A stretch of DNA of 64,000 nucleotides from NCBI GenBank assembly GCA_044229175.1, contig JBGATM010000009.1:71700-135699 (forward strand), read 5' to 3'. The notes beneath the pieces were generated by a model. It was given only the letters and a program-made list of their open reading frames with translations, did not search any database and was not told where the DNA came from. The stretch comes from Vicinamibacteria bacterium (GTDB taxonomy: Bacteria; Acidobacteriota; Vicinamibacteria; Fen-336; JAGNNV01). A program made the position numbers and the translations under genes. Positions within the stretch are counted from its first letter, which is position 1. Every line of letters begins with the position of its first letter. Below, piece by piece: positions 3,001 to 62,653 of the stretch.

Positions 3001-3702
3001 GGCGACGCCGGGCAGGGCGGCGCCGTTTCGCGCGGCTTCCGCCTTCTCCTTCGGGTCCTTCGCCGCCGCTTCCTGCGCGGCTTTCAGCCACTGCGCCGCG
3101 GGCAGCCGGAGCTCAACCCATTGCCAGACGAAAGTCCCTGACGGCAGCGAGGCCGACACGGAGGTCGTAAGCGGCACCGGCGCGCCCATGGGATCGTCGG
3201 CGGCGATCGGACCGGGCGGCGCCCATCCAAGCTCGAGATGCGCGCCGTCCTTCGGGACGTCTTCCCCGCGGACCCGTACCCGCAGGGTGAGGTCACGGAC
3301 GAGAGCAAGCGGATCGAGGCTTCGCTGCAGAGCCGGGGCCGGGAATCCGCCGGCGTCGGGGAAGCCGTCCCGTCGCCGGTCATCATGGACGGTGATCCAG
3401 TTGACCCGCTGCGCCGCTTCCGAGCGCGGACCTTCGAGGAAGAAGCGTCTTGAACCGCGCGGCCCGTCGGCATTCACCCATTTCCAGCTGCCCGAGAGGA
3501 CCCAGGTATCGGGGTTGTAGTCCCGACGGTTCTGAAATCCCGTCGAGTAGCACCAGTGATGGTTCTGGTTCTCCGGCAGCAGGGTGAGCCAGTCGTCCTG
3601 GAAGTTCCCGTTGCGCAGCAGGTTGGCCTCCGCCGCCGGCATCCCCAATAACAACGGGACGGCAAGGGCCAGGGCCACGGGTCGGAAGAGGGCCGAGGGC
3701 AC
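1..3702 (-). CDS. Large secreted protein (partial, runs off window start). Signal peptide, then two CBM4/9-like modules (NLLxNGxF...W) and a putative glycoside-hydrolase-like catalytic region. Likely GTG start at 3702.
   Basis: Manual reverse-strand translation gives a continuous, strongly GC3-biased frame from GTG 3702 / ATG 3642 to position 1 with no stop. The N-terminus VPSALFRPVALALAVPLLLGMPAAEA is signal-peptide-like. Two NLL(R/Q)NG(N/G)F...W motifs are typical of CBM_4_9. It is absent from the ORF track only because the stop lies off-window. The + strand ORF 73-3141 is its Arg-rich antisense shadow. Confidence 0.55.
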   Translation of the reverse strand, partial: MPSALFRPVALALAVPLLLGMPAAEANLLRNGNFQDDWLTLLPENQNHHWCYSTGFQNRRDYNPDTWVLSGSWKWVNADGPRGSRRFFLEGPRSEAAQRVNWITVHDDRRRDGFPDAGGFPAPALQRSLDPLALVRDLTLRVRVRGEDVPKDGAHLELGWAPPGPIAADDPMGAPVPLTTSVSASLPSGTFVWQWVELRLPAAQWLKAAQEAAAKDPKEKAEAARNGAALPGVASVAVRYAGASGRIEIERAELTAAEAAAPNLLQNGGFESKDTAGWPVGWNRPEKYRYFPPALYYLFNTWHNGPLENRGFAARDTLIPHDGSASLKMVVPSGDEVQVASAPVALNQVEPRLIEVSVWVRTDQVNMLQIDGLSDTGERLDGFNFIHKAPVSVGTDGWRRLRQVFRPRRPIRSLRLVLAARGVNGYTLGDTGETPQANATGTIWWDDARVFEPESKPGDLESRGVKRVAAATEAPRTAYLEDLDPGERLFGANRMKATVVNPGVARTLSLVWRFTTFDGRKWETRSPARAFAGGERASVTVPYELPPSLLPAYSEHKGEVSLVDQAGRTLAASELWFSTWSTPIDLELGALYLAPERKQFVRLNLGFSAATMARVASVRLDLIRRGSGAILKSRTVAAGLEEVTAQRERIPLDLREDFTNLILAELDVSSLPVQPFASPERNWFVRATAIDREGRAIFSKDSQPFCRQAPAGAQAGVASVRIDRANLLRVNDEPFLPWAAAYGHVPVYAGAKAGGAPYRDLPNLPAWSIYDGFTAKGYTRATADFNSARYVAGSITSRAEAEKRWASDNLLASTAFVTPGAVYSTRELAKAAGGPEALNANLLFLKTAPMVVSVAPGIEEAFGLFHAVTPAQIAGLESVVNSLRAATGKPVMVGHGGYWNRFEFERVPFFDIFDPETEPLYPANLHTDLMPLIKGQEKAIWLRPQMYEDVPYERWRFHVYVELMRGARGFQIAHGPGDASLFRGLGGELEGLKPVLWSTDPGPAVRIWPEMEHWVRRQAGRTYIMAATTRGLTFGKWNWQNGASGPHGRARVSEGETVVRDEANSYGVGEILPAGPSLHGVQYLPDAGRHAKGSRVVQWVWLDPKAPPRNFAITVKADGRFTHVAAWGPFDVGRFRSGPGLEWFLHSFYRHSDGFLGWGKDLLNAALPYVPRDVRAMGDAPRPGEWTKLAVDLSDIGIANELVDGVGFIHDGGRVLWGRTTIESGSASQTLWGD

Positions 3703-15241: not shown

Positions 15242-15718
15242 CTATCGAGCGGGGTCCGGCCCCATGGTCGGGTCCCTGAGGCTGAGCGCCACCACCCCCA
15301 GGGCTTTGATCGCGCTCTCGACTTCCTCCCGGGTCAGGGCGTGAAGGGCCTTGTGAACCCCTGACTCGATGGTCGGTTCAGGCCGCCCCAGCAAAGCGAG
15401 TCCGGCCGGGGTGATCTGGAGCAGCGAACGCCGCCGATCGGGTCCATCGGAACGGCGAGAGAGCAACCCGCGGCTCACCAGCCGCTTCATCACCCCCGAG
15501 ACCGTGCTCGGATGCAGATGGAGAAGCCGGGCGAGACGGCCCGCGGGAAGGCCGGGGAATCGACTGACGAGCCGAAGAGCGAGCCGCTGGGGTCCGGTAA
15601 CCCCGAGGTCCTTCGCCATCCGCTTCGAGCGCTTCTGCAAAGCGTGATCGAGCGCCCACAGCTCCCGGAGGAAGGCCAGGTCCGGGCCGAGGTCGATCGG
15701 CGGATCGAGCGGTTTCAT
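15242..15718 (-). CDS. MarR-family transcriptional regulator.
   Basis: Winged-HTH region LVSRFPGLPAGRLARLLHLHPSTVSGVMKRLVSRGLLSR. ATGA overlap with the otsB stop. Confidence 0.75.
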   Translation of the reverse strand: MKPLDPPIDLGPDLAFLRELWALDHALQKRSKRMAKDLGVTGPQRLALRLVSRFPGLPAGRLARLLHLHPSTVSGVMKRLVSRGLLSRRSDGPDRRRSLLQITPAGLALLGRPEPTIESGVHKALHALTREEVESAIKALGVVALSLRDPTMGPDPAR

Positions 15719-16503
15719 CGGACCTGTCCGGCCGCGGCGATGAGGTCTCCCATCCGCGTCCATCGCTCGCGGAGGCCGATGAGGACCCGGAGGAAGGCGT
15801 CGATGTCGGCCTGGGACTTGAGGTAGAAATCCGCGCGCGAGGTGGCCTTGCGGCCCACGCGGACGGTAAGCAGGCGGCCCGGCTGGTCGAGGGCGAACAC
15901 GTCCTCGTCCGTCTCGTCGTCACCGACATAGATGGCGGTGTCGCAACGAAGGCGGGCGCGCTCCCGCTCCAGGGCGATGCCCTTGTGGGGCGCGTCCGAG
16001 GGGACGATGTTCACGACCTCGATCCCTCCGATGAGGCGAACGTCCTCGAGCCCCGCGGCCGCCCTCATGATCAGGTCCCGGACCCGCTTCTTGGAGCGGG
16101 AACGGCGGAAGTGGATGGCCAGGGAGTACGTCTTGTCTTCGATCTCGACCCCGACCTCGCCTTCCAGGAACTTTTCGAACAAGGGACGCCAGTCCTGGAC
16201 CCGCCGGTGGGTGTGCTGAGTCGCTCGCCATGGCTCAACTCCATGATTGCCCACCACGCCCCGAAGGCCCAGGCCCTTCACGCGCCTGGCGACATCGGAC
16301 AGCGCCCGTCCCGAGATGACCACGCATGGGTAGAGCACGGCCGCCCGCGCGAGAAGGCTCCGAGTGCCTGGCCGCATGGCCGCCTCCGGCGGATCATCGA
16401 CGATGGGGGCGAGCGTGCCGTCGAAATCGAAGGCGAGCAGGGTCTGCGACCAGGCGAAGGGCTCAATCAGAGCCTGCTGCGGTCCAGCCAGGATGTCCTT
16501 CAT
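15715..16503 (-). CDS. otsB: Trehalose-6-phosphate phosphatase OtsB (HAD family).
   Basis: Motif I FDFDGTL. Motif IYVGDDETDE. ATGA overlap with the otsA stop. The longer ORF-track version carries an Arg-rich N-terminal extension that overlaps otsA. Confidence 0.8.
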   Translation of the reverse strand: MKDILAGPQQALIEPFAWSQTLLAFDFDGTLAPIVDDPPEAAMRPGTRSLLARAAVLYPCVVISGRALSDVARRVKGLGLRGVVGNHGVEPWRATQHTHRRVQDWRPLFEKFLEGEVGVEIEDKTYSLAIHFRRSRSKKRVRDLIMRAAAGLEDVRLIGGIEVVNIVPSDAPHKGIALERERARLRCDTAIYVGDDETDEDVFALDQPGRLLTVRVGRKATSRADFYLKSQADIDAFLRVLIGLRERWTRMGDLIAAAGQVR

Positions 16504-18755
16504 GCTTCGACCCCCGGGAAATGGGCGGCGAAGCGGTCGCTCAGCCGGCCGGTGAGGCGATCGCGACGCCGCAGACGTGCGGCATCGCGCAGCATGCGTC
16601 CTCCCCAGCGATAGATGTTGAACTCGGCGACGAAGGCCCGCATGGAACGCAGGCGGGTTCTTTGCTCCTCGAGCGGCATGGTGAGAGCGGCGCCCAACGC
16701 CCCCGCCGATTCGTCGAGATCGTAGGGATTCACGATCAGGGCTTCGGTCAACTCCCGGGCCGCGCCCGTGAACTGGCTGAGCACGAGGACGCCGCGCTCG
16801 TCGTCGCGCGCGGCCACGAACTCCTTGGCCACGAGGTTCATGCCGTCGTCGAGGCTGCTGACGTAGCAGACATCGGCGGCCCGGTAGTAGCGGAACACGG
16901 TCGGAGGCTCGTGATGGGACGCCTTGAGGATGATCGGCTGGTAGGACGCGGCGCCGAAGCGGAGGTTGATCCTCCCGGCGATGGCTTCGACGCTCGCATT
17001 CAGGTCGCGGTAACGGTCGATGGCGGTCCGGCTGGGAGCCGCAAGCTGCACGAAGACGAACTTTCCCAGGAATTCCGGGCGAAGCTCGAGCAGCCGCTCG
17101 ACGGCGAGGAGCCGCTCCTCGATGCCCTTGGTGTAGTCGAGCCGATCGACGCCTACGCCGAGCAGCGTGCTCTCGGGAAGCTGGAGCTCGGCCAGGACGC
17201 TGCGCCGGCACTCGGCGGCCGGAGGGAGGTCAGCGAGCCAGCGAACCGGCCACTCGAGGGAAATCGGGTAGGGCCGGATCAAGGTGCTCCGGCCCTGTTG
17301 GACGACCGCCTGTCTCTCGCGATCGATTCGCGACTCGAGATAGCGGTCGACCGAATCCATGAAGTTGTTGCAGTGCGCCTGAGTGTGGAAGCCCAGCATG
17401 CTGGCGCCGAGCATGCCATCGAGCAGCTCCTCCCGCCAGGGGCATATTCCGAAACGTTCGGCGTTCGGCCAGGGGATGTGCCAGAAGCCGATCACGGTGG
17501 CACGCGGCAGTTGCTCGCGGATCAGGCGCGGCGCGAGGGCGAGGTGATAGTCCTGGATCAGGACGATCGGATCCTCGATCTCGGCTTCCGCGCAGACCGC
17601 ATCCGCGAACTTCCGGTTCACCGCCTGATAGTGGTTCCAGTCGGTGGTGCGGAAAAGAGGCCGGGTATGGGCCACGTGGCACAGGGGCCAAAGGCCCTCG
17701 TTGGAGAAGCCGTAGTAATAGCCCTTCTCTTCCTCCTCGGTGAGCCAGACCCGCCGGATCGAATAGATCTTCTCTTCGGGAGGAACCATCACGCGGTCGT
17801 GCTTGTCGACAACGTCTCGATCGGCGGTGCCGCTGCCATGGGCGATCCACACCCCGGAACAGGCGCGCATGACCGGCTCGAGGGCGGTGACCAGGCCGCT
17901 CGCCGGATGCAGCACGCGAATGGAACCGTCGGGGGCGCGGTCGTGGATATAGGGTTCCCGGTTCGAGACCACCACGATCTTCTCGCCGTGGAGATTCCGC
18001 TTGAGGGTGTGCTTGAGCCGCTCGGCCGTCCACGCCCCGCTGTCGCCGTCCGCGTCCCGCTCGGTCATGATGTCGTCCACCAGTTCGCGAACGTCGCGCA
18101 GCAGCGGCCGGAATTCATCGCTCTGCGCCCCGCCCCTGAGAACACGCTGAAGCTGTCGGGTCCAGCCGCGCCAGGACAGCCGCACGGCGACGATGGTCAC
18201 GAGCGAGGCGCACAGGGCGAGCAGGAAGAACGCGATGAGGAGCAGATTTCGGCCCTGGGCCTCGCGCCGCTCGGCGAACCCCATGTCGTGAACCAGAATC
18301 ACGAAGCCGGCGATCCCCGCTTCGTCGACGATGGGAAGGCCGCTCAGGTGAGTGGTCCCTCCGGGAAGCGAAGCGACGTGCATCCACTCCACCGGCGGCG
18401 ACCCCGGGGGAAGTCCAGGAGGAAGCACATAGTCCTTCACCCGGTCGCAGCCGAAACCGGCCGGCGTGGTTCCCGCGGTCGCCACCAGGCGCCCCTCCGG
18501 GGCGCACGCGGAGACTCCGAGGATGCGTTCGTCCCGCACGAGGTTGGCGAGGGAGGTGCGGAGGTCGGCGGGCTTGCCCGACCGGAAGCCCGCGGCCAAG
18601 GCCGGGGCCGCGCCGCTGGCGGCCAGGCGGGCGCGCAGGGTGAGGTCCCGCTCCACCCAGCCCCGCGTGGTCTCCTGCATCACCAGAAAGGCGCCCCAGG
18701 TCAGCAGGCCCAGCCCGGCGACCAGAACGACAAGAAACTTGATGGGCTGCCGCAC
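16500..18755 (-). CDS. otsA: Trehalose-6-phosphate synthase OtsA (GT20) fused to an N-terminal two-TM periplasmic sensor-like domain.
   Basis: The C-terminal ~480 aa is a GT20 domain (WIHDYHL-like [18 protein letters not shown]-like GFWHIPWP). N-terminal TM1 is [22 protein letters not shown] ~150-aa extracytoplasmic segment follows. TM2 is [21 protein letters not shown]. The likely start is GTG 18755 (RQPIKF...); an alternative start is ATG 18848. Confidence 0.8.
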
Positions 18756-18776
18756 CGTAAAAGGATATTCTATTTT

Positions 18777-18808
18777 CAGTTGGTACTCCAACCGTTTGCC
18801 GCTATCCT
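18777..18808 (+). promoter_or_regulatory. Copy 1 of a conserved motif: palindrome CAGTTGG-tact-CCAACcG followed by TTTGCCGCTATCCT. Putative operator plus promoter.
   Basis: 33/38 identical to the copy at 19671-19706. Lies between the divergent otsA and cytochrome-lipoprotein genes, about 75 bp upstream of ATG 18883. TTGGTA-N17-TATCCT resembles a -35/-10 pair. Confidence 0.5.
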
Positions 18809-18882
18809 CCGCCGACCGGCCCCTCGGGACCTGCGCGGCCCAGCGCACGGAAGAGCTTTCGCAAAGGGCCTAGCATGTTGGG

Positions 18883-19641
18883 ATGGAAAGAAGATTAGCC
18901 GCATCAATGCTCAGAACCTCGAGGCTCGGCTTGGCCATGATCCCGGGAGTTCTGCTTGTCACATCCCTCCTGATCGCCGGCTGCTCATCAAGCCCGGCCC
19001 CCGGACAACCCGTGCCCTCCCCGACCGGGTCACCTGCCGTTGCCGGCCAGACGCTCCCGACGGCAACGGAGTCGGTCGCGCGGACCGAAAGTGAACGGCC
19101 GGTCGCCGCCGCCACTCCCGGGAAGACTTCCCCCCCGAAGGCTGAGACGGTGTCTCCGAACGCGTCACCGCGGGGCTCGGCGCCTCCTGCTCCCGCCCCG
19201 GTCGCCCCACAGCAAGTTCCGGACAAGGAATCGACGCCAGCCCCCCATCCCGAGTCAACCATCGCCCCGCCCGCGAGCTCACCGCCACCCCCCGTCGCTG
19301 CCCATGTGCCCATCGCCGTGGACATCGGCGGCCTCGTCGAGGTCGGCCCCACAAAGCCCGGCCTCGTCCGGATCGGGGCCGACAAGTGCAAGCTCTGCCA
19401 CAAGCTCCAGTTCACCTCCTGGGCCAAGACCGTTCACGCTGCCCGTACTCCGCCGCTGGACTGCGAGTCCTGCCACGGTCCGGGCAGCGAGTACAAGAGC
19501 CTCGCGATCATGAAGGACGTGGGGAAGGCGCGTGCCGCGGGCCTGGTGATTCCCACACGCGCGTTCTGCTCCAAGTGTCACACCAGCGGCTGGAGCGACG
19601 ATTTGCTCAAGCGGACGCATGAGCACAAGACCGTGAACTAG
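18883..19641 (+). CDS. Lipoprotein with a Pro/Ala/Ser-rich linker and a C-terminal triheme c-type cytochrome domain.
   Basis: Lipobox LLIAGCSS. Low-complexity linker of about 120 aa. Three CxxCH motifs: CKLCH, CESCH, CSKCH. Confidence 0.6.
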   Translation: MERRLAASMLRTSRLGLAMIPGVLLVTSLLIAGCSSSPAPGQPVPSPTGSPAVAGQTLPTATESVARTESERPVAAATPGKTSPPKAETVSPNASPRGSAPPAPAPVAPQQVPDKESTPAPHPESTIAPPASSPPPPVAAHVPIAVDIGGLVEVGPTKPGLVRIGADKCKLCHKLQFTSWAKTVHAARTPPLDCESCHGPGSEYKSLAIMKDVGKARAAGLVIPTRAFCSKCHTSGWSDDLLKRTHEHKTVN

Positions 19642-19672
19642 CCGAACGGTCTGAACGCCGGCCCGGCACATT

Positions 19673-19704
19673 CAGTTGGTGCTCCAACTGTTTACCGCTA
19701 TCCT
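19673..19704 (+). promoter_or_regulatory. Copy 2 of the motif: perfect 7-bp inverted repeat CAGTTGG-tgct-CCAACTG followed by TTTACCGCTATCCT, immediately upstream of the GH15 gene ATG (19715).
   Basis: Direct repeat of copy 1. The spacing implies a leaderless or near-leaderless transcript. Confidence 0.5.
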
Positions 19705-19714
19705 TCCCTGGACC

Positions 19715-21481
19715 ATGCACCTCGAGGACCTCGGACTCATCGGGAATTGTCAGTATTCGGCCCTGGTGGATCGTTCCGGGAGCGTGGTCTGGTGTTGCCT
19801 TCCCCGATTCGACTCCGAGCCGGTCTTTTCGTCGCTCCTCGACGCGGAGAAGGGCGGCCGCTTCGAGATCGGGCCCGAGAGCGGCGAGCGCGGCGAACAG
19901 CGGTACATCGAAAACACCAATGTCCTGGAAACCCGGTTCGAGACGAAGGCCGGGTCCTTCCGGATCGTCGACTTCGCGCCGCGCTTCGTCCAGTTCGATC
20001 GCATCTTCAGGCCCACCCAGCTCATTCGCATCGTGGAGCCCCTGGAAGGGACACCGCGCATTCGCGTGTCCTGCGAGCCGCGGCTCGGCTGGTCCAAAGC
20101 CGTGCCGGATCGAGTCTTCGGCTCCAACCACGTCCGCTACGAGGGCTTCGCCTCCCATGTGAGACTGACGAGCGACGTGCCCGTGTCCTATCTCTCCGGG
20201 CAGCCGTTCGCTCTTACCAGCCGCAAGCATCTGGTCCTCACCTGGGGCGCGCCGATAGAGGAGGCGCTTGCCCCTCTCGCCTCCCGCTTCCTGGGAGAGA
20301 CCCTGCGCTACTGGCAGCGATGGGTGATGCAGTGCAACGTGCCGGCCGCGTTCCAGAACGAGGTCATTCGCTCCGCCCTGGTCCTCAAGCTCCATTGCTT
20401 CGAAGACACGGGGGCCATCGTCGCGGCCATGACCACCTCCCTTCCCGAGGCGCCCGGCTCGGGCCGCACCTGGGACTACCGCTACTGCTGGCTGCGCGAC
20501 GCGTATTACAGCCTCGGCGCCTTCCGCCTCCTGGGTCAGTTCGAAGAGCGTGAACACTTCGTGAACTATCTCTTCGACGTGGCGGGCGGAGCGCCGGATC
20601 TCCAGCTCAATCCGCTCTATCGCGTGGACGGCAGTTCGGACCTGAGCGAGAGCGTGCAGGAAGGCTGGGCCGGCTACGAGGGGAACGGCCCGGTGCGGGT
20701 CGGAAACGCGGCGGCCAAGCACACCCAGAACGACATCTTCGGGGAGATGGTCCTGGCCCTGGCGCCCGTCTATCTCGACGAGCGCTTCCAGGCGGAGCGT
20801 TCCCCCCAGGCCCTCGACCTGCTGACCCGTCTCGCGCGCCGGGCCGTGGAAGTCGCGGGCACCCCGGACGCGGGCATCTGGGAATACCGGACGGACTGGA
20901 AGCCGCAGACCTTCTCGAGTCTCATGTGCTGGGCGGGAGCCGATCGGATGGCGAGGGTGGCGCGCATTCACAAGCCGGAGATTGCCGCCGAGTTCGAAAA
21001 AGCGGCGGGCAAGATCCGCGACCAGATCGTCCACGAGGCCTGGAGCGACCGGCTGTACTCCTTCGCGTCGAGCCACGGCGGTCACGATCTCGATGCCTCC
21101 CTGCTCCAGATGGCGACTCTCCGGTTCCTCCCCCCCGGTTCCCCCCACGTGCATCGAACCATCGAGGCGATCCGGAACGGGCTGTCCCGCGACGGGTGGC
21201 TCTTCCGCTACCGGGCCGATGACGGTTTCGGCCAGCCGGAGGTCGCCTTCGTCATCTGCTCCTTCTGGCTGGTGGAGGCCCTCGTCCGCACCGATCAGGT
21301 GGAGGAGGCGCGCGTGGTCATGGGCCGCATCATCGAAGCTCTGTCGCCGCTCGGTCTGCTGGCCGAGGACTACGACACGTCCGGCCGCAGGATGTGGGGC
21401 AACTTCCCCCAGGCCTACTCACACGTCGGCCTCATCCACGCGGCATTCGCGGCCTCGCCCCCGTGGACCGAGGTGCTGTGA
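19715..21481 (+). CDS. Glycoside hydrolase family 15 (glucoamylase/trehalase-like).
   Basis: N-terminal GLIGNCQYSALV...WCCLPRFDS hallmark of GH15 (bacterial trehalases/glucoamylases). Size about 590 aa. The ORF-track TTG start at 19676 lies inside the motif, so ATG 19715 is preferred. Confidence 0.8.
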   Translation: MHLEDLGLIGNCQYSALVDRSGSVVWCCLPRFDSEPVFSSLLDAEKGGRFEIGPESGERGEQRYIENTNVLETRFETKAGSFRIVDFAPRFVQFDRIFRPTQLIRIVEPLEGTPRIRVSCEPRLGWSKAVPDRVFGSNHVRYEGFASHVRLTSDVPVSYLSGQPFALTSRKHLVLTWGAPIEEALAPLASRFLGETLRYWQRWVMQCNVPAAFQNEVIRSALVLKLHCFEDTGAIVAAMTTSLPEAPGSGRTWDYRYCWLRDAYYSLGAFRLLGQFEEREHFVNYLFDVAGGAPDLQLNPLYRVDGSSDLSESVQEGWAGYEGNGPVRVGNAAAKHTQNDIFGEMVLALAPVYLDERFQAERSPQALDLLTRLARRAVEVAGTPDAGIWEYRTDWKPQTFSSLMCWAGADRMARVARIHKPEIAAEFEKAAGKIRDQIVHEAWSDRLYSFASSHGGHDLDASLLQMATLRFLPPGSPHVHRTIEAIRNGLSRDGWLFRYRADDGFGQPEVAFVICSFWLVEALVRTDQVEEARVVMGRIIEALSPLGLLAEDYDTSGRRMWGNFPQAYSHVGLIHAAFAASPPWTEVL

Positions 21482-21499: not shown

Positions 21500-22858
21500 A
21501 TGCTTAGGATCGTTCGCGGCTGGCTCGACCGGGTTCCCGACCTCGTCGCCTCACCGAGAGTCCGGAAATCGACCCTGCAGGTGCTCCCGTTCTGGTTCGC
21601 GGGCGCCATCGCGGGCCTGGTGGCGGTTGGCTACGCCCGGGCGTTCTCGATCCTCGAGGAGAACTTCCGGGCCGTGGCCACCCAATCGTCCTGGGTCTTG
21701 CTCATCGCCTGCCCCCTGGCCTTTTTCGCATCGTGGGCCCTCGTCTTCGTGTTCTCCCCCGAAGCGTCCGGCAGCGGTATCCCGCAACTGATGGCCGCGG
21801 CCGCGCCGAACAGCGGCAAGGCGATGGTGAACCGGCTCCTCAGCACGCGGGCTGCGGTGGTCAAGGTGCTGAGTTCGTGCATCGCCGTGGCCGGCGGCGG
21901 CGCCATCGGCCGTGAAGGCCCGACCCTTCAGATCTCGGGCGCGATCTTCCGGGCCGTCCAGGCCCGGCTGCCGAGCTTCTGGCCCCGCGTTCCCACATCT
22001 TCCATGCTGCTGGCCGGGGGCGCCGCCGGTCTCGCCGCGGCCTTCAACACACCCCTGGGCGGGATCGTCTACGCGATCGAGGAGCTGGCCCGGACCCATA
22101 TCGCCTCCTTTCGATCCGGTGTGCTCCACGCCGTCCTGGTGGCCGGCCTCGTCGCCCAGTTGATCCTGGGCCCCTACCTCTACCTCGGCTTTCCGAAGAT
22201 CGGCGTCTGGTCGAATCACGATCTTCCCTGGTGCGCGCTCCTTGGCGGCGCGGCTGGGCTGGTGGGGGCGTTGTGGGCGCGCGCTCTCTTCTCGGTATTC
22301 CAGTTCCGCGCACGCCTGAGAAGCATCCGGGCGCAGGCGGGCTTCGCCCTGGCCACCGGCCTCGCCTTCGCCACCCTCGTCATGCTGACCGGCCGCGCCA
22401 CCCTCGGTTCGGGCCGCGGGGTCATCGAGGATCTGCTCTTCGTCAGCCAGGCGCCGGCGGGCGCCGGACTGGTGCTTGGACGACTCGCGGGATCTTTCCT
22501 CTCGTTCTCGGCGGGCGGAGCCGGCGGAATCTTCGCGCCGGCCCTCGCCTCCGGCGCGGCCATGGCTTCGGCGCTCGCGCCCGCTTTCGCGCCCATCGAG
22601 CCGCGGCTCCTCATCGTGCTCGGCATGGTCGCGTTCCTGACCGGGGTCACGCGCACGCCTTTCACGTCGTTCGTACTGGTCCTCGAGATGACCGACCGGC
22701 ACTCCGCCCTGTTCCCCATGATGATCGCGGCCATGAGCGCATACGCGGCCAGTCATCTGGTGGATCACGAGTCCTTCTACGAGCGGGTGCGAGGTGTGAT
22801 CGTAGCCGCTGAGCCCGTGCCTCCCTCGGGGGCTGCCGCTCCGGTGAGGGAAGTTTGA
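21500..22858 (+). CDS. ClC-family chloride channel / H+-Cl- antiporter.
   Basis: Selectivity motifs GSGIP and GREGP, GxFxP-like GIFAP, multi-TM. Confidence 0.8.
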   Translation: MLRIVRGWLDRVPDLVASPRVRKSTLQVLPFWFAGAIAGLVAVGYARAFSILEENFRAVATQSSWVLLIACPLAFFASWALVFVFSPEASGSGIPQLMAAAAPNSGKAMVNRLLSTRAAVVKVLSSCIAVAGGGAIGREGPTLQISGAIFRAVQARLPSFWPRVPTSSMLLAGGAAGLAAAFNTPLGGIVYAIEELARTHIASFRSGVLHAVLVAGLVAQLILGPYLYLGFPKIGVWSNHDLPWCALLGGAAGLVGALWARALFSVFQFRARLRSIRAQAGFALATGLAFATLVMLTGRATLGSGRGVIEDLLFVSQAPAGAGLVLGRLAGSFLSFSAGGAGGIFAPALASGAAMASALAPAFAPIEPRLLIVLGMVAFLTGVTRTPFTSFVLVLEMTDRHSALFPMMIAAMSAYAASHLVDHESFYERVRGVIVAAEPVPPSGAAAPVREV

Positions 22859-28383: not shown

Positions 28384-28648
28384 CTGAGTCGGCCGTGCGG
28401 CCGTGGCGCGGCCGCGGGTGTATCCTATATTAGTTGGAACTCAAAGTACTATCCGATCCGACGCGCCCGCCCGTCAACGAGGGATCGGGAACCCGTGGGC
28501 GCCGCGCCGAACTCCTGCAGCGAGACCCGCGGAAATATTGGGGCCGATCGGCGGGGGCAAGCCGTTCATCGCCTGTGCCAGAATGGTGGAGCCATGGAAC
28601 TGATTTCAGGCGTATCGGGACGAATGTTCGGGTTCCGGGTGGCCTGAC

Positions 28649-31221: not shown

Positions 31222-31351
31222 GGGCTGTCCCGGAGGATTCGAAACCGCTGCGTGCCCCAGGCTGTCCTTCTCCTAGACATTACCATGAACTCCACATTTT
31301 GTTTTGTGTACAAACTAATCTGTGATACTTTCTTGATGGAAAGGACCTGCC

Positions 31352-32263
31352 ATGAAAACGCCCCGACTGATCGTCTGCGCCACCGACCTCCGGGAAGGCG
31401 GCGACCGCGCCATCATGGAAGCTGATACGTGGGCGAAGCGGCACAACGCCACCGTGGCTTTCGTCCATGCGATTCCCGAGACGTCTCGAAGTCACGTTCT
31501 GTTCCCCCAGCTGGCGCAGAGGAGCTTCAACCATCTGCCCGCGCTCATGAGCCTGGCCGCCGATGCCGTGGCCGGACGCGTCGAGCGCCTCACTTCCCGG
31601 CCACGGGCCGACCTGGACATCCGGGTCGATGTCGGTTCGCCCGCGGGAATCATCGTTTCGGTGGCCGAGGAGCTGGGCGCCGACCTCATCGTCCTTGGCG
31701 CGGTTTCGAGCCCTGACACGATCGGGCCCCTGGGCTCGGTGGCCCTGCGGGTAGTCCGCCACGCGCACAGCCCGGTGCTGGTGGTGCGCCCAGGCGAGGG
31801 GACCGGGCCGGTCCTTTCGGCGAGCGATCTCTCCGATCCGGGTTTCCCCGCGGTGGTGGCCGGGGCCTATCTGGCCGAAGGCCTCGGCGCGCCCCTGTCG
31901 GTCATCCACGTGGCCGAGCTTCCCCCGCCTCCGCCGGTGGTCCCCGAGGCTGTCGGCGCCGGCCTCGGATACGCGATGACGGGGGCGGAGTATCAGCTCC
32001 TGCGCGAAGCGGCGAGGGACGCCTTGGCATCGGCGATGACCAAGTTGGGGTTGAACGGGCAGACCCTCGTCGAGGAGGGAATTCCCGGCGTATCGATCGT
32101 GGCCGCGGCCCGTCGACTGAAGGCTCGTCTGCTCGTGGTCGGCACGGAAGGTCGGACGGGCCTGCGGCGAATGCTCCTCGGAAGCACCGCGGAGCAGATC
32201 CTCAGGGCCGCTCCCTGTTCCGTTCTCGTTGTCCGGCTTCATTCCCATGGAGGTCCATCATGA
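31352..32263 (+). CDS. Universal stress protein, tandem UspA domains.
   Basis: Two USP domains with C-terminal G-x2-G-x9-G(S/T) ATP-binding-like motifs (VLGAVSS, VVGTEGRTGLRRMLLGSTA). Confidence 0.8.
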   Translation: MKTPRLIVCATDLREGGDRAIMEADTWAKRHNATVAFVHAIPETSRSHVLFPQLAQRSFNHLPALMSLAADAVAGRVERLTSRPRADLDIRVDVGSPAGIIVSVAEELGADLIVLGAVSSPDTIGPLGSVALRVVRHAHSPVLVVRPGEGTGPVLSASDLSDPGFPAVVAGAYLAEGLGAPLSVIHVAELPPPPPVVPEAVGAGLGYAMTGAEYQLLREAARDALASAMTKLGLNGQTLVEEGIPGVSIVAAARRLKARLLVVGTEGRTGLRRMLLGSTAEQILRAAPCSVLVVRLHSHGGPS

Positions 32264-61825: not shown

Positions 61826-62653
61826 TTGAGCCTCATGGCCAGGGCATCCTCGCGCTTCCCGCCCATCCGGGCGCTGATCGCGATCGCTCTGGCTCTTCTT
61901 CCTGGCCTCGTCGGAGCCCAGCCAAAGGCTCCTCCTCCGCCCGCGAACTTCTTCACCGACAGCACCGGGATGGTTTCCCCGGAGGTCGCGTCCCGCATCG
62001 AGCAGCGCCTGCGGGAATTCCAGAAGTCCTCCTCGAATCAGGTGCTGGTCGTCGTCGCGGATCGCGTCCCCGAGGGCTATGCGTCCCTCGAGGAGTACAC
62101 CAACCGGACCGCGGAAGCCTGGCGGGTGGGTGACAAGACCCGCGATAACGGCGCTGTCCTCTTCGTCTTCGTCGGCGATCGCAAGGTGCGCATCGAGGTG
62201 GGCTATGGACTCGAGGGCGCGCTGCCGGACGCCCTGGCCTCAAGGATCATCAACGACGAGATCACTCCGCGATTCCGGGAAGGCAAGTATGGAGACGGCC
62301 TGCTCGCGGGTGTCGATGCCATCATTCTTGCCACCAAAGGCGAGTACAAGCCTCTCGTCCGCGGACAATCGTCCTCGGACACCCTGCTGATCGTTGCCGT
62401 CGTCATCTTCTTCCTCTTCGTGGGCGTCATCCTTCCGATCATCCGGGAAGTCATGGGAATCCGCAGCGGTTGGTGCACCTACTCGGGGCACGGGACCTCG
62501 AGCGGACGGCGTGGTTCCACCTGGGGATCGGGCGGAGGCTCGTCGTGGGGCGGCTGGTCGAGTGGCGGCGGCAGTTCGTGGGGTGGGGGCGGGGGAGGCT
62601 TCTCCGGCGGCGGCGGCTCATTCGGCGGCGGCGGCGCCTCTGGAAGCTGGTGA
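61826..62653 (+). CDS. TPM-domain (YgcG/TLP18.3-like) protein with a TM helix and a Gly/Ser/Trp-rich C-terminal tail.
   Basis: Signal peptide. TPM core (VLVVVADRVPEGY...VLFVFVGDRKVRIEVGYGLEG). The tail contains GSSWGG repeats. Confidence 0.7.
   Translation: MSLMARASSRFPPIRALIAIALALLPGLVGAQPKAPPPPANFFTDSTGMVSPEVASRIEQRLREFQKSSSNQVLVVVADRVPEGYASLEEYTNRTAEAWRVGDKTRDNGAVLFVFVGDRKVRIEVGYGLEGALPDALASRIINDEITPRFREGKYGDGLLAGVDAIILATKGEYKPLVRGQSSSDTLLIVAVVIFFLFVGVILPIIREVMGIRSGWCTYSGHGTSSGRRGSTWGSGGGSSWGGWSSGGGSSWGGGGGGFSGGGGSFGGGGASGSW

Follow-up and report, generated by a model that had tools for sequence, protein, structure and literature searches.

Here, we describe a duplicated promoter segment in a 64,000-nucleotide (nt) stretch of DNA from a Vicinamibacteria bacterium (Acidobacteriota; assembly GCA_044229175.1, contig JBGATM010000009.1, positions 71,700 to 135,699), which is referred to as the window throughout. 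Two copies of this segment, each carrying an 18-base-pair (bp) palindrome, flank a triheme cytochrome gene that separates the trehalose synthesis operon otsA-otsB-marR from a divergent gene for a GH15 trehalase-like protein. Taken as a whole, the locus is fairly probably an interleaved two-way promoter with an operator for the MarR-family regulator, which would serve a small osmotic-stress regulon and would have been doubled when the cytochrome gene was inserted. Comparison with related loci shows how the spacer is built, that an insertion duplicated part of it and that the palindrome is associated with marR homologues.

The repeat copies and the cytochrome insertion

A repeat search identified a direct repeat of 34 nt with copy 1 at 18775–18808 and copy 2 at 19671–19704 (no strand assigned to either), which are 31/34 (91%) identical and lie 896 bp apart from start to start. 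An earlier note on this DNA had described two 38-bp motifs, 33/38 identical and 895 bp apart. Both copies are indeed present, at coordinates that agree within 1–2 nt, but the length and identity had to be revised: the strings quoted in that note are 36 nt each and match at 31/36 positions. A pattern search of the 64 kb with CAGTTGG-N4-CCAACYG returned only palindrome 1 at 18777–18794 (CAGTTGGTACTCCAACCG; the proposed MarR operator) and palindrome 2 at 19673–19690 (CAGTTGGTGCTCCAACTG), again without an assigned strand, which bears out the earlier observation of an 18-bp palindrome in each copy. Palindrome 2 is perfectly symmetric, and palindrome 1 has one asymmetric position (CCAACCG). When up to two mismatches were allowed, 5 strand-hits were obtained against 0.81 expected, and a count of at least 5 was reached in 0 of 100 shuffles. 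The copies are also AT-richer than their surroundings, as had been noted, with local GC dips to 0.53 and 0.57 compared with roughly 0.65–0.75 for most flanking intervals.

Orthologous loci, designated here by L numbers, were gathered through a look-up of OtsA homologues and a scan of genome contigs with an alignment of MarR orthologues. They were mapped by tblastn, and the upstream sequences were aligned (13 sequences; 12 loci other than the window). The otsA-otsB-marR operon is kept in all Vicinamibacteria relatives examined. In L001/L010, L012, L005/L006, L011, L014, L018, L019 and L022, the GH15 gene is divergent from otsA across a spacer of 60–65 bp that holds one palindrome. The ancestral-type order continues with a CLC chloride-channel gene after GH15, while otsA-otsB-marR occupies the other side. 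Among the loci examined, no cytochrome gene lies between GH15 and otsA in any relative carrying both genes, L011 included. The comparison with related genomes that had been suggested as a check thus gave a clear answer, with otsA and GH15 directly adjacent and a single motif copy in every relative that has both genes.

The closest relative is L011, with identities of 94% for OtsA, 96% for GH15 and 87% for the CLC protein. In BLAST comparisons, window positions 18700–18808 (copy 1 included) match L011 4019–3911, and window positions 19671–19800 (copy 2 included) match L011 3944–3814. Since both matches cover L011 3911–3944, the window holds two copies of this 34-bp part of the L011 spacer, and the 862 bp that separate them (18809–19670, + strand) are foreign to the spacer. 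Most of this inserted segment (18818–19656) is 80% identical to the native cytochrome locus L025/L026 of another Vicinamibacteria genome, where the cytochrome is 75% identical and stands in an unrelated context; L027 provides a third context. Relative to L011, copy 1 carries two changes and copy 2 one. Because distant relatives share the single-copy state, insertion in the lineage of the window is the parsimonious direction. The repeats are very likely a duplicated promoter region created by the cytochrome insertion, as judged from this comparison. The earlier note had offered such a duplication as an alternative to a regulatory role of the motif. The single copy in L011 and the BLAST boundaries confirm the duplication, and the two proposals turn out to be complementary, as both hold.

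In this lineage, the 862-bp cytochrome fragment was very probably inserted just downstream of the GH15-side -10 box, with duplication of 34 bp. Copy 1 would then have kept the otsA promoter while its other face, formerly the GH15 promoter, reads into the cytochrome gene, and copy 2 would drive GH15. Direct repeats on either side of an inserted gene could also stem from a transposable element carrying the cytochrome, either as its ends or as its target-site duplication. However, the repeat is resident spacer sequence that occurs as a single copy in relatives, and usual target duplications are far shorter than 34 bp. The insert contains neither a transposase nor terminal inverted repeats, its ends have no other copy in the window, and the cytochrome homologues stand in unrelated, non-mobile contexts. 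We consider a mobile-element footprint highly unlikely on these grounds.

About 65 nt of upstream sequence belonging to the cytochrome gene itself also arrived with the insert, including a conserved block, GCGCACGGAAGAG, which is common to the three unrelated contexts. This block lies about 17–18 nt upstream of a TAnnnT box, which in turn lies 6 nt before the cytochrome ATG and reads TAGCAT in the window (18871–18876) and L025 and TACCCT in L027. Block and box fall within window 18840–18876, L025 5900–5995 and L027 5950–5995. The block may be a -35 region of a non-sigma-70 type or a regulator site of the cytochrome gene. As the block and the box came with the insert, the cytochrome gene (18883–19641, + strand) probably has its own leaderless-type promoter. 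It is a recent passenger with a promoter-like upstream region rather than an ancestral member of the regulon.

The predicted interleaved promoters of otsA and GH15

Read toward otsA, the spacer consists of the GH15 start codon (CAT), 7–11 nt, AGGATA (TATCCT on the GH15 strand), about 11 nt, the palindrome in the general form YRGTTKG-N4-CMAASYR, about 9 nt, TAnnnT, 6–7 nt and the ATG or GTG of otsA. Each strand thereby presents TTGGnn-N17/18-TAnnnT, and the two -35 hexamers together occupy the palindrome's inner 12 bp. They are arranged crosswise, each lying inside the spacer of the opposite promoter. In palindrome 1, these hexamers are TTGGTA (+ strand, 18780–18785) and TTGGAG (- strand, 18786–18791). 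On the + strand of the window, the candidate promoters read TTGGTA-N17-TATCCT (18780–18808) and TTGGTG-N17-TATCCT (19676–19704), while the - strand reads TTGGAG-N18-TATCCT. The earlier suggestion that TTGGTR-N17-TATCCT resembles a sigma-70-like -35/-10 pair therefore agrees with the spacing in both copies, with the correction that the -35 boxes also form the inner half of the palindrome.

The otsA -10 box, TATCCT at 18762–18767 on the - strand, lies 6 nt before the GTG at 18755 and has a leaderless geometry. Copy 1 also has a -10 box on the + strand (TATCCT, 18803–18808), whose homologue in L011 and L001 is the -10 box of GH15; with a start predicted near 18815, about 68 nt of leader would precede the cytochrome gene. 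In copy 2, the putative promoter-operator of GH15, the -35 box TTGGTG (19676–19681) and the -10 box TATCCT (19699–19704) are both on the + strand, and the -10 box lies 10 nt before the ATG at 19715.

The palindrome and the flanking -10 boxes are the conserved positions of the spacer in 10 of the 12 loci aligned with the window's two copies. Across the 13 aligned sequences, the columns that vary little or not at all are GTT.G....C.AA in the palindrome and TA...T in the -10 box, whose positions T1, A2 and T6 are kept in all relatives aligned. Even in L019 and L022, two distant metagenome-assembled genomes (MAGs) with OtsA only about 60% identical, the palindrome and -10 columns are kept while the rest of the spacer has diverged.

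In all 13 sequences, the TAnnnT box of otsA ends 6–7 nt before the start codon (first T at 12–13 nt), and no Shine-Dalgarno sequence is present. For GH15, the distance from the -10 box to the start is 7–11 nt, with 12–14 nt from the first T to the ATG in most relatives. A TANNNT motif about 12 nt before the start has been described as the mark of leaderless genes, which account on average for 13% of genes in three Acidobacteria genomes (PMC3160421). When likely genes were pooled from the window and nine related loci, TAnnnT offsets peaked at 12, with 10 cases against about 1 at most other offsets, but the otsA orthologues account for several of these 10. Within the window by itself, offsets of 12–13 were seen for 4 genes, otsA among them, and an offset of 16 for 5 genes. 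Because the -10 boxes are so close to the start codons, the otsA and GH15 mRNAs are probably leaderless or nearly so; for GH15 in the window and L011, the geometry implies a leader of a few nucleotides. A second small peak was observed in the window at 16–17 nt (7 genes, presumably including GH15), which hints at a class of mRNAs with leaders of 3–5 nt.

The palindrome as a candidate MarR operator

The palindrome itself is likely, with good confidence, to be the operator of a transcription factor. A simpler explanation would be that it merely consists of the abutting TTG -35 boxes of divergent sigma-70-type promoters, duplicated along with them, and that no dedicated regulator is involved. The invariant palindrome columns are exactly TTG on each strand and the spacing to TAnnnT is 17–18 nt on both strands, as this explanation predicts. 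However, the palindrome persists where there is no divergent gene, namely in L002, L003/L004 and L023, from which GH15 has been lost, and in copy 2 of the window. Furthermore, conservation extends past the -35 hexamer to the G that precedes TT and to the outer YR/YR positions, a different geometry with the -10 box overlapping the palindrome end (CAAAC|TAATAT) is found at 28431, 31300 and in L028, and the palindrome recurs beside marR homologues in other phyla. Since it is kept without a divergent gene, at other promoters of the window and beside distant marR genes, the palindrome appears to be more than two -35 boxes, and we regard an explanation by promoters alone as improbable.

The other promoters of the window were found with the degenerate pattern YRGTTKG-N4-CMAASYR, which was derived from the orthologues and scored over 14 positions. 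At a score of at least 13/14, the window contains 4 sites compared with 0.18 expected, and the maximum in 200 simulations was 2. The third palindrome (TAGTTGGAACTCAAAGTA, 28431–28448, no strand assigned) lies in an AT-rich spacer that has, on one side, a TPR/cyclic-nucleotide (cNMP)-binding gene with MscS behind it and, on the other, a GNAT gene with a mechanosensitive-channel-like gene behind it. The fourth (TGTTTTGTGTACAAACTA, 31300–31317, no strand assigned) lies in an AT-rich spacer upstream of a tandem Usp gene (31352–32263), with a DUF389 gene after it; this palindrome begins 52 nt and ends 34 nt before the Usp start. At these two sites, the overlapping -10-like sequences are TAATAT and TAATCT. 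Both sites are kept in the syntenic locus L028 (positions 3928 and 554) though the surrounding spacer has diverged, and the counterpart at 554 is again upstream of Usp. No palindrome accompanies the non-syntenic homologues of the cNMP-binding protein in L029–L032. Two weak matches at 62467 and 49924 score 12/14, a score for which 2.7 hits are expected by chance, and were treated as chance. A site of the FNR/CRP type (TTGAT-N4-ATCAA) was rejected on inspection because its spacing does not fit.

The palindrome could also act at the RNA level, as a hairpin that terminates transcription behind the cytochrome gene or stabilises an mRNA. With copy 2, a 7-bp stem of -11.8 kcal/mol (z -3.1) can fold 30 nt past the stop codon of the cytochrome. 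However, only UUU follows the stem, a terminator scan called neither copy, and an Rfam search of 18000–20500 gave only a chance match to mir-486 (E 0.45). The ancestral palindrome also lies upstream of both predicted starts and would hence be untranscribed. An RNA element is a very improbable account of the palindrome.

As to the factor that binds the operator, the linked MarR protein is the probable candidate, although this part of the reading is held less firmly than the operator itself. The protein (15242–15718) matches Pfam MarR_2 with 47.1 bits (cut-off 27, E 2.7e-12) and MarR with 40.2 bits (cut-off 24.6), and its best PDB relatives are MarR-family structures with E about 1e-8. No NCBIfam equivalog reaches its cut-off for this protein. 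Its winged helix-turn-helix region LHPSTVSG is almost invariant among the MarR orthologues, and an 18-bp palindrome lying over both -35 boxes agrees with MarR-type operators, which are palindromes or pseudopalindromes of about 16–20 bp that overlap the -35/-10 elements of the promoters they control. A metagenome scan with the single MarR sequence returned one match of 35% identity, which was irrelevant.

In every locus with the palindrome at otsA, marR follows otsB. The palindrome also occurs in the divergent CLC/marR spacer of L020, directly upstream of a stand-alone marR gene in L019 and directly upstream of CLC-marR operons in L022 and L024. Given this recurrence in front of marR genes that stand alone or follow CLC, the MarR encoded in the otsA operon is a likely binder. 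Together with the sites upstream of otsA-otsB-marR in orthologous loci, these positions are of the kind seen in autoregulation, as far as placement goes. No palindrome was detected at L007, where otsA occurs without marR, or at three unrelated control loci.

The palindrome could instead be the operator of a different transcription factor encoded elsewhere, for instance a global stress regulator, with the linked MarR regulating something else. The four sites of the window precede general stress genes (Usp, MscS and the cNMP-binding protein), which could suit a global regulator, and the link of the MarR protein to this DNA is indirect. The palindrome and this MarR subfamily nevertheless travel together across Vicinamibacteria and Myxococcota-type MAGs, and the sites in front of marR in L019, L022 and L024 point the same way. 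In addition, an 18-bp palindrome with 7-bp arms about 11 bp apart from centre to centre suits a winged-helix dimer. Control by a factor encoded elsewhere therefore seems unlikely to us, and the linked MarR remains the preferred binder.

Some further observations were made at the more distant loci. In MAGs of Polyangiaceae, Myxococcales and Solibacteraceae (L022 7422–9707; L024 5135–7205; L020 5580–7414), MarR homologues are encoded together with CLC(-CBS) genes, and in L022 there are two paralogous marR genes, of which one follows otsB and the other CLC. L019 contains a further palindrome (TAGTTTGATGTCAAACTT, 3018–3035), which lies close to where a CHASE3 histidine-kinase gene begins and about 2 kb away from the stand-alone marR.

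Several points weigh against a MarR-controlled, leaderless two-way promoter. The support comes from sequence comparison, and all loci are from uncultured MAGs. The invariant inner TTG/CAA is also what two back-to-back -35 boxes alone would conserve, and the outer palindrome positions are moderately conserved, without strict symmetric covariation. The negative set is small, with one otsA locus lacking marR and three unrelated loci (about 49 kb), in which at most about 1 chance hit is expected. In L021, the palindrome (7494) lies downstream of the marR homologue. With respect to the promoters, the GH15 -10 box lies 10–11 nt from the ATG in the window and L011 (first T at 16–17 nt) instead of 6–7 nt. 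Finally, a scan with the E. coli consensus does not call these promoters, as 8/12 positions matched against a threshold of 9; with a genomic GC content of about 68%, such a miss is to be expected.

In the mechanism that we propose, a MarR dimer would bind the 18-bp palindrome and cover both -35 boxes. Bound MarR would repress otsA-otsB-marR, its own gene included, together with GH15-CLC until a signal releases it; in the present genome, the cytochrome-facing promoter of copy 1 would be closed as well. Owing to the crossed -35 boxes, two polymerases would be unable to occupy the spacer simultaneously. MarR would further control the promoters at 28431 (cNMP-binding/MscS) and 31300 (Usp/DUF389). 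We infer the transcription starts, the binding of MarR, repression as its mode of action and the releasing signal. The predicted set of regulated genes has an osmotic or desiccation flavour, comprising trehalose synthesis and hydrolysis, a chloride channel, mechanosensitive channels and Usp. A small MarR regulon coupling trehalose synthesis, trehalose hydrolysis and the cytochrome had been proposed earlier. The conservation of the palindrome at otsA-GH15 and beside marR speaks for this proposal, but the cytochrome seems to be a late passenger and the regulon would be wider.

Genes of the locus and known regulatory systems

The gene identities were assigned by Pfam (MarR_2, Trehalose_PPase, Glyco_transf_20, GH15 with TREH_N, and Voltage_CLC). 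On the - strand, the operon consists of otsA (16500–18755; trehalose-6-phosphate synthase, Glyco_transf_20), otsB (15715–16503; trehalose-phosphatase, Trehalose_PPase) and, as its last gene, marR (15242–15718), encoding the candidate palindrome binder. On the + strand, the GH15 trehalase-like gene (19715–21481; TREH_N plus Glyco_hydro_15, starting at ATG 19715) is followed by the CLC chloride-channel gene (21500–22858; Voltage_CLC). The GH15 protein matches the archaeal TreH1 model with E 1.6e-91, which is under the curated equivalog cut-off. The inserted cytochrome has three CXXCH motifs and a LIAGC lipobox; these motifs and the Pfam matches uphold the previous calls of MarR, otsA, otsB, GH15 and the triheme cytochrome lipoprotein.

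The CLC gene begins 19 nt 3' of GH15, and the two are probably on one transcript, so that copy 2 probably serves the CLC gene as well. In the Vicinamibacteria MAG locus L016 (3885–3960), GH15 is absent, CLC is the divergent partner of otsA with a TATCAT box 7 nt before its start, and the palindrome is kept. This replacement of GH15 by CLC is consistent with GH15-CLC being a single transcription unit elsewhere. In a more distant acidobacterial genome with OtsA 67% identical (L007 6001–14253), otsA-otsB, a second GT20 gene, GH15 and GlgE form a co-directional cluster, with mechanosensitive-channel and Usp-domain genes upstream.

With the start at GTG 18755, OtsA has 751 aa, in line with the 749–757 aa of hundreds of homologues, and its best homologues are from Vicinamibacteria (Acidobacteriota) MAGs. 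Ahead of the GT20 domain, the N-terminal stretch of about 250 aa comprises a transmembrane helix, about 150 periplasmic residues and a second transmembrane helix. This 750-aa form is widespread, with thousands of homologues of about 65% identity in Acidobacteriota and deltaproteobacteria-type MAGs. Such an extension would suit a trehalose-phosphate synthase that is anchored in the membrane and may sense a signal.

Although abundant in soil, Vicinamibacteria have seldom been cultured, and to our knowledge almost nothing is known about their gene regulation. In a limited literature search, neither control of otsBA by a MarR protein nor the regulation of trehalose genes in Vicinamibacteria was the subject of any paper. 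The locus offers a concrete candidate pair of operator and regulator, a two-way promoter predicted to be leaderless and a possible regulon for trehalose-based protection against desiccation or osmotic stress. The insertion illustrates how a gene that duplicates a promoter-operator on entry may leave both the newcomer and the displaced gene expressed and regulated. In this sense, the known control of compatible solutes by MarR-type regulators would be extended to a further solute, trehalose, and to another phylum. It overturns no current ideas; it is a useful first regulon prediction for an uncultured soil lineage, and the gene regulation that it describes is fairly ordinary and not surprising. 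A more far-reaching version, which we consider rather doubtful, would see here an undescribed MarR subfamily, ranging from Vicinamibacteria to Myxococcota-type genomes, as the master switch of a regulon of trehalose, chloride-channel, mechanosensitive-channel and Usp genes. Mutually exclusive leaderless promoters would then toggle otsAB and GH15 from a single dimer site, with the cytochrome newly wired in.

Among known systems, the marRAB/marC locus with marO and the Tn10 tetR-tetA pair use a self-encoded repressor on palindromic sites over promoter elements to control both directions. The present locus resembles them in its short divergent spacer, its proposed shared operator and a regulator encoded by one of the two units. 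In contrast to marO and tetO, one 18-bp palindrome appears to serve both promoters here, the crossed -35 boxes would make the polymerases compete, and both transcripts appear leaderless. The promoters themselves resemble the leaderless TAnnnT promoters of Actinobacteria, Deinococcus-Thermus and Acidobacteria, in which the first T lies about 12 nt before the start and no Shine-Dalgarno sequence is present. They differ from these in that GH15 in the window has 16 nt instead of 12, and in that the starts are predicted from the sequence.

The closest functional parallel that we can draw is to EctR1 of Methylomicrobium alcaliphilum and CosR of Vibrio, MarR-type regulators that directly repress genes for the synthesis and transport of compatible solutes (PMC7876524). 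They are often encoded beside the biosynthesis operon and control a small osmotic-stress regulon (PMC7876524). The likeness lies in a MarR-family regulator adjoining a compatible-solute operon, and the comparison is one of function. Compared with these systems, the solute here is trehalose (otsAB and the GH15 trehalase) instead of ectoine or betaine, and the host is an acidobacterium. Furthermore, the regulator of the present locus is the last gene of the operon, and its proposed operator lies on two interleaved promoters of the leaderless type.

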